This document shows positions 1,381 to 8,513 of a stretch of DNA of 10,016 bases, one piece after another. The DNA is from Octopus sinensis (lineage: Eukaryota). A program made the position numbers and the translations under genes. The stretch's first letter is position 1, and each line of letters starts with the position of its first letter. Where the stretch lies: positions 1-10,016 of the forward strand of contig NW_021827847.1 in NCBI RefSeq assembly GCF_006345805.1. The letters run 5' to 3'. The notes below the pieces were generated by a model. It saw nothing but the letters and a program-made list of their open reading frames with translations. It was not told the origin of the DNA and ran no database searches.

Positions 1381-1586
1381 GTTAATCCAAACAGGAAAGC
1401 ACAAAAAAAACACAACAACGCAAGGACGTGGAGCAAATATAGTATTATTGGACGATAAGGAAAGAAGGAAAGAAGGAGGGTTTAACGTTTCGAGGGGAGC
1501 TCTTCGTCGGAAACATAGGAGAAGGAAAGATCCAGAGAAGGGAAGACAGAGGGAAAAATCGCCAACGGTACACCCGAGGTCACATT
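1381..1586 (-). mobile_element. ~205 bp interspersed repeat, PLE pseudo-LTR-like (family A, copy 1), carrying an HHR-like motif
   Basis: Reverse complement of 7031-7240 with scattered substitutions; flanked by (TA)n on both sides. Confidence 0.7.
1480..1514 (-). ncRNA. Degenerate minimal hammerhead ribozyme motif (core CCGACGA, U4C)
   Basis: Minus strand reads GUUU-CCGACGA-A-GAG-CUCCC-CUC-GAA-ACGU-U-AAAC. Confidence 0.45.
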
Positions 1587-1589
1587 TTG

Positions 1590-2065
1590 ATATATATATA
1601 TATACACAAACACACACACACACACACACATATATATATATATGAGAGAGAGATATGGAGATATATATATATATATATGTGTGTGTGTGTATATAGATAT
1701 ATATTCATATATTCAAATTTGCGTATGAATATTAGAAGAAATATATATATATATTATATATATACATACACACACATACATACATATATATATATACATA
1801 CACACACATTTTTCTATGCATACATACATGTGTGTGTTTAATGCAACTTTGTATACATGAACAACTGACGTAAGCTGCATGTAATATGAAAGCCTGCACA
1901 TGCTCCCCCCCCCGCTATATATACACACATACGCACACACCCACATATATGTATACACACACACACACAAAATTCAACCATCCGTAAACACATAAGGAAA
2001 TGCTCCATGCTTGATCGCATCGTTTTGACATATGCACATATTATGCATATACAAATATACATACA
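1590..2065. repeat. Compound TA/CA/GA/TG microsatellite region
   Basis: Alternating dinucleotide tracts; ORFs here translate to YI/TH/CV repeats. Confidence 0.85.
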
Positions 2066-2846
2066 CTAACAGCATGCCCAGCGTGCCCCAGGTATGTTAA
2101 GAGCCCCTAGTAGGCAACGACTAATCCCAATCTAGTCCTTTCCCTCTAGGGAACGAAGGCGCATGTGCAGTGGCAATGTCTTCTCTTTCACTCCCAAATA
2201 CCTATCAAACAGCTATCGATAATTCCAACCCAACCAATTGCGTCCCCTAGACAGTCTGTGTTTGTGTTTAATACACAAATCGTTTGCTATGTGTGCCACC
2301 TATGATTTTAATTAACCGATTTTTTCCAGTAATAAAGTATCATATTGGAATCAAAAGGGCCATATAGCTCCTTGGACCAGACATGATGTTCGCTGTGAAT
2401 TTTAAAAACAATTCCTGCCAATTTATGAAAGATATTGTCGAAAATATGTCATCTTGAATTTGAACGCGATTTCCCAAAATGGCATGATTTTATCGATTTT
2501 TTTCTGATGGTAAGGTATTGTATGGAAAACTAACGTCAGAATTAAGTTTCTTAGAGTAACATTAAGCTTCACTATGAGTTTGGTGAAAACCGATTGCAAG
2601 TTGCGAAAACTACAACAGAAAATGTGTTGCATATAAAAAGCTTAGATTCTCGACCCCATGTCGAATTTATCGATTTTTTCAGAACTGGGGGAACTTTTCA
2701 AAATTCTCGCTGCGTTAGTTTTGAATTATGACATTGGGTTATGTGTGTGTCAAGTTTCATCAGAATCGGTTGAAAGCCGTGGTCAGGGTGAGGGTACAAC
2801 CTGACAGACACACAGACAGACAAACTGCCGTTTATATATAGAGAGA
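2066..2846 (-). mobile_element. Non-autonomous Helitron-like element, long copy
   Basis: Minus strand starts A|TCTCTCTATATAT and ends TTAG|T after a GC-rich subterminal segment. 2645-2846 is nearly identical to 3101-3311, and 2238-2268 matches 3067-3098. Confidence 0.6.
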
Positions 2847-2949
2847 TTTTGATAATATTAATTAATACCTAAAAGGTTTATATTCCCATGATGACAACTT
2901 GATTCGATCGATAATTTAAATAACGATCTTATCCTTATTTATATAAAAA

Positions 2950-3311
2950 CTAGCAGTATCGCCCGGCGTTGCTCAGGTTTGTAAGGGAAATAACTATAAA
3001 GCATTTTTAGATAGTTATAGCCAAAAAATACGAAAAAAATTTTTTGAGAGTAAAAAAAGGTGGAGTTGCGTCCCCTAGACAGTTTGCGGTTTGTGTTTCT
3101 GATTCTCGACCCCATGTCGAATTTATCGATTTTTTTCAGAACTGGGGGAACTTTTCAAAATTTTCGCTGGGTTAGTTTTGAATTATGACATTGGGCTATG
3201 TGTGTGTCAAGTTTCATCAGAATCGGTTGAAAGCCGTGGTCAGGGTGAGGGTACAACCTAACAGACACACAGACACGCAGACAGACAAACTGCCATTTAT
3301 ATAGAGAGAGA
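2950..3311 (-). mobile_element. Non-autonomous Helitron-like element, short copy
   Basis: Minus strand has a 5' TC at 3311 and a 3' CTAG at 2953-2950, sits between A and T, and has an imperfect hairpin CCTGAGCAACGCCGGG about 8 nt upstream of CTAG. Contains an internal (GACA)-type microsatellite. Confidence 0.75.
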
Positions 3312-3345
3312 TTTATATATTTACTTCGTCATTATGTTCACAGCG

Positions 3346-3585
3346 GTGGTATTTTGACCGTATTGCACGTGGAATTTAGACGAGTAATTAAACCGCTCGT
3401 GTATATGCGTACACAATGCTGGTGTTTACGTCCAAGTGATTTAGCGGTTCGGTAAAAATAAAAGACCGATAGAATAAGTACTAGGTTTACAAAGAATAAG
3501 TTCTGGGGTCGATTCGTTCGACTAAAGGCGGTGCCTCAGCATGGCCGCAGTCAGATGACTGAAACAAGTAAAAGAATAAAAGAAT
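3346..3585 (+). mobile_element. SINE 3' portion (octopus-type)
   Basis: ~3415-3585 is a diverged reverse complement of ~6382-6545 (GACCGATAGAATAAGTAC...GGGGTCGA...AAAGGCGGTGC...CATGGCC...GAAACAAGTAAAAGA); A-rich tail runs into (TA)n. Confidence 0.75.
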
Positions 3586-3701
3586 ATATATATATATATA
3601 TATTGGTAAAAATGGTAAGATAACAAAAGAATGAAAGAGACCTCAATATTATGTAAATAGAAGAATCTATCTGTAAAATAATATGTGACAATTTTTCAGA
3701 T

Positions 3702-3773
3702 GGCCAAAATAAAACTCTGAGTTTCGGATGCCGAGGTGGAAATCCACAACACCATCTCTTCAGTTATCGGGCC
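3702..3773 (-). ncRNA. Hammerhead-like motif with long stem II
   Basis: AUAA-CUGAAGA-GAUG..(GUGG AUUU CCAC)..CAUC-C-GAA-ACUC A GAGU-U-UUAU; stem I extends via GGCC/GGCC. Confidence 0.5.
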
Positions 3774-6744: not shown

Positions 6745-6981
6745 GTGTTTAGCCCCTTGTGGGTAGTAAAGAAATAGGTATTTCGTCTGCCGCTACGTTC
6801 TGAGTTCAAATTCCGCCGACGTCGACTTTGCCTTTCATCCTTTCGGGGTCGATTAAATAAGTACCAGTTACGCACTGGGGTCGATATAATCGACTTAATC
6901 CGTTTGTCTGTCCTTGTTTGTCCTCTCTGTGTTTAGCCCCTTGTGGGTAGTAAAGAAATAGGTATTTCGTCTACCGTTACG
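6743..6981 (+). mobile_element. SINE with Nin/Deu-domain-like core in a 184 bp-period partial tandem
   Basis: B-box-like GAGTTCAAATTC and core GCCTTTCATCCTTTCGGGGTCGATTAAATAAGTACC; 6743-6797 is repeated at 6927-6981. Confidence 0.75.
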
Positions 6982-7030
6982 GTTTGAGCATAGCCACAGT
7001 CAACTAACTGAAACATGTAAAAGAGTTTGT

Positions 7031-7240
7031 AATGTGACCGCGTGTGTACCGTTGGCGATTTTTTTCCCTCCGTCTTCCCATCTCTGGATCTTTCCTTTTC
7101 CTATGTTTCTGACGAGGAGCTCGGCTCGAAACGTTAAACCCTCCTTCTTCCCTTCCTTCCTGAGCGTCCAATAGTACTATATTTGTTCCACGTCCTCGCG
7201 TTGTGGTATTTTCTCTTTGTGTTTTCATGTTTGGATTAAC
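7031..7240 (+). mobile_element. PLE pseudo-LTR-like repeat (family A, copy 2)
   Basis: Inverted homolog of 1381-1586; ends GGATTAAC directly into (TA)n, as copy 1 does. Confidence 0.7.
7105..7139 (+). ncRNA. Minimal type I hammerhead ribozyme motif
   Basis: GUUU-CUGACGA-G-GAGC-UCG-GCUC-GAA-ACGU-U-AAAC: intact core, palindromic ACGU stem III, predicted GUU site at 7133-7135. Confidence 0.65.
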
Positions 7241-7710
7241 TATATATATATATATATATATATATATATATCAGAATTAATCAGCCGAAATTTGCCATGA
7301 TGATTCGGTTTCTGACTGAAGATTGAAGGCTTCGAATGACCTATCTGTTTTCTGTGTCGTCCCTTCGTGTATTTCACAAATTTTTTTTATTCTATATTTT
7401 GACTTTTTATTAAAATCTTATGTATTGATTAAGTCTTTCCTTGTTTGTTTTGCAAAATAGTGGTTTTGTCTCTAATTAATATATATAATATATATATATA
7501 TATATATATATATATATATATATATATATATATATATATATATATATATATATATATATATATATATATGTATAAGGGGGAAGGAACACACGTGCAAACA
7601 AGGGAGTCAGAGAAAGGCAGAATCCACCTATATCTGAACACTACTATGGAAGTATTCCGTAAAAAAACCTTTCTTCTAATTTTTCTAAATTTTTCTAAAT
7701 TTAATTATTT

Positions 7711-7760
7711 AATCGTTACAGTGAAAAGGTCTCAAATGACCGAAACCGGTACTGAAGATT
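7711..7760 (+). ncRNA. Degenerate minimal hammerhead motif (family D) within a ~240 bp insert between (TA)n tracts (7570-7807)
   Basis: AAUC..CAG-UGAAAA-GGUC-UCAAAU-GACC-GAA-ACCGGU-A-CUG..GAUU; the 5' core deviates from CUGANGA. Confidence 0.45.
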
Positions 7761-8335
7761 CACTATAAAATCATCTTAGCATTTTCTATTTTTGACTTGT
7801 TTTTTCATATATATATATATATATATATATATATATATATATATATATAATTGAAGGTATATTCCGTTAAGAACAAAGCAGTGAACATAACTGAGCTAGT
7901 TCACCCTTAGAATTATCAACTTGCCAGTAGTGTTACGATATACTTCTAAGTCTAGGTTTGGGCATTCGTCGTGTGTGAAAACAAAATTGAATAAGATAGA
8001 ATCAACAAGGAGTACGGTTGGACAGTTATTTTTTAATTAGAACACATGATTCGTTACAAGGTCTCTCTCTCTATCCGCTCAGTCGAAGTCGACTCTCGGT
8101 TACTCGATGGATCAGTGTCCTCCAGTCAGTTCTATCCTGGGACGCTTCTTTCAGATTGGCTATGTCCATTCCGGTATCACTCTTGATGGTGTCAAGCCAG
8201 CGGGTTCTTGGTCGGCCTCTTCCTCTCTTGCCACTGACCATTCCGTATATATGTAATATATATATATATATATATATATATATATATATATATATATATA
8301 TATATATAATATATATATATATATATATATAGAAG

Positions 8336-8388
8336 GAGCTTCTACAGGACTAGAACTGTTTCATTCAAAAGGAATCATCAGGAAGCCC
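8336..8388 (-). ncRNA. Type I hammerhead ribozyme motif (family E, inverted copy)
   Basis: GGGCUUC-CUGAUGA-UUCCUUUUGAAU-GAA-ACAG-UUCUAGUC-CUGU-A-GAAGCUC. Confidence 0.6.
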
Positions 8389-8460
8389 TGACTGGAGGAC
8401 ACTGATCCAACGAGTGACCGAGAGTCGACTTCGACTGAGCGGAATATATATATAATATCA

Positions 8461-8513
8461 GAGCTTCCTGATGATTTCTCTTGAATGAAACAGTTCTAGT
8501 TCTGTAGAAGCTC
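8461..8513 (+). ncRNA. Type I hammerhead ribozyme motif (family E)
   Basis: GAGCUUC-CUGAUGA-U-UUC-UCUU-GAA-U-GAA-ACAG-UUCUAGUU-CUGU-A-GAAGCUC: 7 bp stem I, 4 bp stem III, GUA site with predicted cleavage after A8506. Confidence 0.72.

Follow-up and report, generated by a model that had tools for sequence, protein, structure and literature searches.

Hammerhead ribozymes of Penelope-like elements and of a likely retrozyme, the target of a site-specific LINE, in Octopus sinensis

Hammerhead ribozymes of Penelope-like elements (PLEs), retrozymes and the origin of the latter in PLEs are known phenomena (Cervera 2014, 2020), and the motifs described here, from the genome of Octopus sinensis (2.72 Gb), are new members of these groups. 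The stretch of DNA analyzed, hereafter the window, is a complete unplaced contig of 10,016 bp (NW_021827847.1, assembly GCF_006345805.1). An earlier note, made from its sequence alone, had pointed to seven hammerhead-like motifs plus a more decayed one, and had taken them for short, non-coding, ribozyme-bearing retroelements concentrated at (TA)n. We assign the motifs to five repeat families (A to E). In all likelihood, the hammerheads are 3'-end modules of four PLE families (A, B, D, and E) and of one likely retrozyme (C), the latter interrupted by Tx1a, a long interspersed nuclear element (LINE) with a fixed site in the retrozyme.

The comparison with the closest described systems relies on the parts of the published accounts drawn on here. 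The minimal hammerheads found in the pseudo-long terminal repeats (pLTRs) of PLEs (PMC4209133) have in common with those of the window the type I topology, a short stem I, an extra base between 9 and 10.1, a stem III that is palindromic, the presence of many families in one genome, a predominance of truncated solo copies, pairs on opposite strands, and a U3:A8 core variant, whereas the family-wide U4C plus U17 of A and B and the non-canonical 10.1-11.1 pairs of C and D were not seen in the parts of that account drawn on here. The initial assignment to type I hammerheads of the PLE or retrozyme kind, in several families, was correct. With the Neptune and Hydra PLEs (PMC8557442) they share direct pLTRs, an inverted 5'-truncated copy, (TA)n targeting, and linker motifs; there is no difference of substance, and our elements are new members, assigned by motifs. 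Animal non-LTR retrozymes (PMC7229834; bioRxiv 10.64898/2026.07.22.740005), whose units measure 350 to 390 bp in mussels, resemble family C in having a tandem unit some hundreds of base pairs long, a type I hammerhead, no open reading frame (ORF), and target site duplications (TSDs) of >4 bp, but family C is known here from DNA units, not from circular RNA or cleavage. As for Tx1a, it shares an L1-group ORF2, a fixed multicopy target, and a TSD with Tx1L, Keno, Kibi, Koshi, and Tx1-Mar (Kojima 2015, PMC4494074), and it forms tandem copies sandwiching the TSD like those described in the same work for the Tx1-mobilized SINEU-3. The targets given there are DNA transposons, long terminal repeat elements, small nuclear RNA, 5S, microsatellites, and unspecified satellites, whereas that of Tx1a is a ribozyme-bearing retroelement, with the site in the outer stem I and host families 49 to 73% alike. 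R2, with its 5' ribozyme of the hepatitis delta virus type (PMC3774820), is likewise a LINE specific for one site, within a locus that is tandem and transcribed, and next to a ribozyme. However, R2 encodes and uses its own ribozyme, and the one next to Tx1a belongs to the target. No LINE with a retrozyme target was found in the literature searched, although comments in Repbase or the "satellite" targets of Kojima could already cover one. An octopus repeat annotation of 2026 uses neither "ribozyme" nor "retrozyme" in its main text, and a paper on a squid genome limits itself to counting hammerheads.

The contig is a stack of repeats with (TA)n between them. All eight hammerhead-like motifs are present, two each in families A, B, and D and one each in C and E, i.e., exactly five families where about five had been estimated. 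They account for six insertion events and not for eight separate items, because the motifs at 3702 and 3771, and those at 8336 and 8461, are inverted duplications that arose in one insertion per pair. A PLE-type descriptor modelled on the published minimal hammerhead was run against 60 dinucleotide shuffles, the control that the earlier note had proposed, and the motif counts exceeded those of the shuffles. With a strict core there were two matches (7105-7139 and 8461-8513) versus a mean of 0.03 in the shuffles (maximum 1), and with a relaxed one (one core mismatch, any N17) five versus 0.5 ± 0.65 (maximum 2). The relaxed matches were the known motifs at 1480, 4888, 7105, and 8461 together with 4736-4783 on the minus strand, a probable chance hit; a stricter initial descriptor had recovered one motif only. 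Those at 3702, 3771, 8336, and 7711 were not picked up by the descriptor and are supported instead by the genome-wide copies of their families. Rfam gave no hammerhead in the window at the gathering score, the sole match being HH9 at 7708-7769 with 17.3 bits versus 52. An unaltered core with a cleavable N17 is found in the window at 8461-8513 alone, and most of the other copies bear changes (U4C, U17, or G17) predicted to impair cleavage. Since published minimal hammerheads are weak and require dimers, the solo copies of the window are likely inert, and we regard them as probable fossils.

The density of motifs is far above background: ribozyme segments of A, B, D, and E number seven in the 10-kb window and five in 505,541 bases of loci taken for other purposes. 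This excess is likely explained by the shared (TA)n targeting and by the choice of a striking window. It could also raise the suspicion that the cluster is an artefact of assembly, the contig being small and unplaced, or a product of chance matches, all the more as the window is the entire contig and its E copy has homopolymer deletions. Such an origin is extremely unlikely, given that the motif counts exceed those of the shuffles, that every motif belongs to a genome-wide family, that the inverted pairs recur in 14/24 B and 18/24 D loci, and that Tx1a junctions (see below) are found on many large contigs, and one is spanned by a 1,952-nt contig of run X18. The results at the level of families are independent of the local arrangement in the contig. 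These counts and those that follow come from best-match searches, not from random samples; individual loci elsewhere in the genome are designated by L numbers.

Family C consists of a 355-bp circularly permuted unit that occurs in partial monomers as well as in dimers and trimers (L120, L218, and L219). Its copies have inverted 5' pieces, two preferred 3' ends, targets that are not microsatellites, and TSDs of ca. 7 to 13 bp, read by eye. By these sequence features, with a unit length inside the 150 to 450 bp of that class, C is likely a non-LTR retrozyme. The insertion in the window comprises an inverted 5' piece (4441-4563, minus strand; unit positions 107-229), an upstream partial copy of the unit (4565-4811, plus; unit 99-345) ending about 8 nt before the Tx1a target site, a downstream copy (4868-5092, plus) with the hammerhead at 4888-4932 and its core from 4894, and a remainder (5498-5566, plus; unit 221-289). 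The window hammerhead has G17 where the family has A. There are four relatives, C2 to C5, 49 to 73% alike (62% between C and C2), and among C, C2, C3, and C4 stems I and II covary (a test that the earlier note had proposed), with double changes at 8 of 10 pairs and 83.5% of cells paired versus at most 36.5% when slid. This set is made up of 17 distinct hand-picked copies with the misaligned stem III left out, and their relatedness inflates the shuffle test. In three RNA runs, labelled as from a related organism, 1,274 to 1,669 reads per run match the C unit and their ends do not pile up, which for fragmented libraries is uninformative on cleavage or circles. Reads cross the unit junction, as they would with tandem DNA; they are in both orientations, and 63 to 72% of them run into other sequence. 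A suspected second insertion target at unit position ca. 230 was discarded, being C's own preferred 3' end. We also found a local array of at least seven sub-units of C, of ca. 165 bp each and without the ribozyme (L201), and one copy each of C4 and C5 with altered cores (CCAAGGA in L152 and UUGAUGA in L164) that are still Tx1a targets.

The lead to Tx1a was that a LINE ORF often ended just upstream of the ribozyme in C copies. In the window, the two C units are separated by a 56-bp, 5'-truncated Tx1a 3' end (4812-4867, plus), 93% identical to that of L102, which the earlier note had missed. It is followed by the target site (4868-4885, plus), which is the 5' strand of the extended stem I in the ribozyme of family C and is present in duplicate where insertions at other loci carry a TSD. 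When the LINE 3' untranslated region (UTR) alone served as query, 30 loci were obtained, two of them without a 3' end. In 26 of the 28 scoreable ones, counted by hand with L164 and L175 included, the 3' end joins at A(C/T)CTCTAGC, ca. 26 nt upstream of the ribozyme core. Leaving out seven loci previously found via C, 19 of 21 are at the site (two being junctions of one tandem array). What follows downstream is C, C2, C3, C4, C5, or a short stub of one of them. A second search with the LINE 5' end also gave 30 loci, of which we scored the 16 whose match extends into the initial 31 bases of the query (in the remaining 14 it is internal only), and the target precedes the element in 15/16. Beyond the target there is a retrozyme in six cases (one the source of the query and one degenerate) and another Tx1a 3' end in the other nine. 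The duplications measure 13 to 19 bp, and tandem Tx1a arrays have formed. The target flanks three elements of ca. 5 kb on either side, L389 (in C2, with a perfect 17-bp duplication), L344 (in C), and L386 (in tandem), and likewise the shorter L190, L189, L193, and L388. Another LINE of L1/Tx1 type, Tx1b, also lies in the C insertion of the window (5093-5496, plus; 5'-truncated, with a 10-bp TSD). It served as the negative control: C adjoins it in 0/24 other loci, so that it is inside C by chance, and the idea of two LINE families targeting C was rejected. Tx1a is site-specific for retrozymes, and its flanks exceed the share in a single repeat (>20%) that Kojima uses as the criterion of target specificity.

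A ribozyme unit following most Tx1a 3' ends, at a junction without poly(A), could also be part of the LINE's own 3' UTR, acquired by one old fusion, with the C copies as its non-autonomous derivatives. Consistent with this, a truncated LINE has no retrozyme within ca. 8 kb upstream in 12/20 long loci. However, empty target sites occur and run on into native retrozyme sequence (the query selected for them), and the retrozyme resumes upstream of the 5' junction, with the target duplicated, in L389, L190, L344, L189, and L193. Furthermore, Tx1a tails reach as much as 90% identity between C and C2, two hosts that are themselves 62% alike, and in three 5' ends (L346, L351, and L356) a C2-type remnant comes after a duplication of C type, as expected of host switching. 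These near-identical tails on diverged hosts, together with the mixed 5' ends, indicate repeated insertion with host switching, and the fusion seems very unlikely.

The coding content of Tx1a includes a CCHC zinc knuckle in ORF1 (L344) and RVT_1 and zf-RVT domains in ORF2. Its relatives carry PF03372, PF00078, and PF13966, and the closest solved protein is LINE-1 ORF2p; judged by its domains, Tx1a belongs to the L1 group. The "Tx1" in its name is our assumption from the appearance of the sequence. The best named relative of a LINE reverse transcriptase (RT) from this genome is in Argonauta hians. A PDB search with a fragment of the Tx1a endonuclease region gave no match, and a protein search with the C-terminus of ORF2 gave one, unnamed. 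The Tx1a tail of L118 is interrupted by a repeat that is also present in the window as two related copies (2090-2850 and 2950-3310; 95% alike over 152 nt), which we presume to be Helitron-like.

Families A, B, D, and E are the (TA)n-anchored 3' ends, i.e., the pLTRs, of PLEs. Their copies are 5'-truncated, and in the other loci the 3' end lies at (TA)n in 26/29 (A), 24/24 (B), 24/24 (D), and 19/19 (E) cases; the reported concentration at (TA)n applies to these four and not to C, whose insertions are not in (TA)n. An inverted 5' piece accompanies 1/29 A, 14/24 B, 18/24 D, and 3/19 E loci. Both (TA)n targeting and the inverted piece are typical of PLE structure, as described in the parts of Craig et al. 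(2021, PMC8557442) relevant here. At other places in the genome, members of these families or repeats closely related to them adjoin PLE ORFs, the linkage that the earlier note had suggested looking for. The endonuclease-positive (EN+) architecture, with an ORF that encodes RT plus GIY-YIG at its C-terminus, between direct pLTRs, was seen for E, A-like, and B-like elements, and for D the ORF was seen upstream only. The window itself holds no remnant of a PLE ORF by tblastn with natural PLE ORFs of this genome, in agreement with the earlier note. Priming by the RT and GIY-YIG nuclease would take place at (TA)n, and synthesis would mostly end prematurely, so that stubs are left; as each of these retains its (TA)n target, they would accumulate.

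Family E gives the most direct link. The window copy (7585-7806, plus) is the 5'-truncated 3' pLTR of a Neptune-type PLE, and a Neptune-type ORF lies directly upstream of E in 13/19 loci (some neighboring or duplicated), with a full element including both pLTRs in L226. The parent ORF matches RVT_1 (E = 4.6e-8) and, just under the cutoff, GIY-YIG (E = 6.6e-4), and it has the CX2-5CxxC linker before GIY-YIG that is diagnostic of Neptune, the Hydra marks being DKT, CxCX5C, CxxC, and CxH plus (TA)n (PMC8557442). The hammerhead at 7711-7760, which had been considered more decayed than the rest, has the U3:A8 core UUGAAAA found in 18/19 other copies, a variant already described (Cervera and De la Pena 2014, PMC4209133). 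Compared with the 19 family copies, that of the window, hammerhead included, lacks single bases in several homopolymers, which likely reflects errors of the long-read consensus of this contig.

Two copies of family A are present, one at 1380-1586 (minus; ca. 210 bp with a (TA)n end, derived from a PLE pLTR) with a minimal hammerhead at 1480-1514 carrying U4C and U17, and the other at 7031-7241 (plus) with a minimal hammerhead at 7105-7139 that has an intact core, a palindromic stem III, and U17. Fragments of an RT are fused to A in L003 and L012, and repeats 70 to 92% like A flank the Neptune-type ORF of that RT, on both sides in 4/20 long loci (L272, L274, L276, and L277). The A-like pLTRs at ORF loci have U4C with GUC in 10/15. 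The A copies of the window belong to a short subfamily whose 5' boundary is fairly constant and which probably arose by deletion.

The B insertion includes a copy at 3603-3775 (minus), which shares 85 to 86% identity with a pLTR from a PLE of Hydra type and whose motif (3702-3773) has U17 and an off-register stem II, and an inverted partial copy at 3767-3864 (plus), whose motif (3771-3840) has a damaged stem III. B-like repeats (mostly 85 to 86%) adjoin a match to the Hydra-type ORF in 24/24 other loci, most often just downstream of it. The ORF upstream of B-like pLTRs has the DKT, CxCX5C, CxxC, and CxH motifs (L309), and both pLTRs are present in L313. The non-canonical core of B is shared by the pLTR of the related ORF-bearing element, and the B motif is hammerhead-derived and probably weak or inactive. 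In L313 (3144-3303) and 23 other loci, there is a near-invariant motif with U4C and U17 whose core is able to pair with its own stem II region; this motif of a high-copy Hydra-type PLE is conserved, though probably no fast self-cleaver.

Family D probably represents the pLTR of another PLE of Hydra type. Its 3' end in the window (8458-8596, plus) carries a type I hammerhead at 8461-8513 with an intact core, a GUA site, and a 7-bp stem I, and the inverted partial copy of the same insertion (8326-8391, minus) carries that of 8336-8388. In 2/12 long single-copy loci (L335 and L336), a Hydra-type ORF lies upstream of D, at a distance of ca. 2.5 kb and in the same orientation, with the C-terminal Hydra motifs only (L335). 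The ORF upstream of D in L280 and L282 was rejected as a PLE, since it belongs to an unrelated LINE. Between the D arms lies an inverted piece (8379-8443) of a ca. 176-bp repeat that has eight pieces in 8074-10014, separated by (TA)n; from its minus-strand translation we take it to be the 3' end of an RTE-type LINE, with no Pfam match. A further (TA)n-ending family, F (7272-7478, plus), contains half of a core (CUGAAGA) and a short hairpin, lacks GAAA and stem III, and is possibly another degenerate pLTR; it is not counted among the five.

Alternatively, each of the five families could be an independent retroelement, short, non-coding, and capable of self-cleavage, in line with the earlier note. 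The copy numbers are high, with 1,094 to 2,255 first-look candidates per family (which are not copy numbers as such), A has its fairly fixed 5' boundary, C is a tandem unit, and long B copies contain microsatellite-rich DNA without an ORF. In contrast, E is the end of a coding PLE and repeats of A, B, and D type flank PLE ORFs. Moreover, the type I core (CUGANGA or UUGANAA, GAAA, UH) is intact in 23/24 D, 26/30 C, and 18/19 E copies, whereas in B it is non-canonical throughout the family (U17 in 24/24, C4 in 15/24) and in A only 8/29 copies have a fully canonical core with A17. This alternative is thus unlikely for the five families together, and the description fits C and probably the short A subfamily only.

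Several observations weigh against our reading that PLE modules and a retrozyme interrupted by a site-specific LINE make up this cluster. The Neptune and Hydra clade names rest on motifs, the link of D to an ORF comes from two loci only, and no linked ORF or autonomous partner of C appeared in 30 loci. The Tx1a stub of the window has no TSD, the 3' query was taken from a C-adjacent copy, and all Tx1a copies examined are broken, none with an intact ORF2. Among the junctions, L150 is off target, L169 is shifted ca. 20 nt further in, and the 5' end of L348 lacks the target site. The tail tree is weak, with 3 of 32 branches strongly supported and only two host changes forced. To the 12 long loci without an upstream retrozyme mentioned above, it must be added that no convincing TSD was found around 13 LINE-retrozyme composites of this kind.

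As to how Tx1a may work, its endonuclease likely recognizes the fixed retrozyme site, and the element would insert by target-primed reverse transcription from a nick made where the outer stem I of the ribozyme begins. The target duplication would leave the whole ribozyme intact downstream, which would make a multicopy retrozyme a safe haven. Less firmly, the retrozyme machinery may have recopied retrozyme-LINE composites, generating the truncated LINEs without an upstream retrozyme; we infer this because many composites end at the retrozyme's preferred 3' ends, and L179 has a PLE-type inversion. It is conceivable, albeit rather doubtful, that Tx1a is a hyperparasite borrowing the ribozyme of its target. 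In a tandem retrozyme, the LINE would lie between two hammerheads, and a read-through transcript would be cut to a defined LINE RNA with target sequence at both ends. This RNA, possibly circularized, might serve as a template for the LINE's own enzyme as well as for the Penelope machinery responsible for moving the retrozyme. Pointers in this direction are the precise 3' junctions without poly(A), the target remnants at 5' ends, the intact ribozyme ca. 26 nt downstream, and the truncated LINE-retrozyme composites ending at the retrozyme's preferred 3' ends.

The window also contains a degenerate (GTG)n array of ca. 417 units (3-1247) and abundant repeats resembling short interspersed nuclear elements (SINEs) at 6385-7025 and 3340-3580, also present in many other loci.

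Tx1a brings a new target class to the Tx1-type endonucleases, namely a ribozyme stem conserved across diverged retrozyme families. The arrangement suggests a three-tier system of a Penelope element, a retrozyme, and a LINE, and with Tx1a it can be examined concretely if a LINE is able to exploit a ribozyme that its target provides, a matter relevant to the in vivo role of PLE and retrozyme hammerheads. The non-canonical cores across successful PLE families, for their part, suggest that fast cleavage is not needed for these elements to spread.

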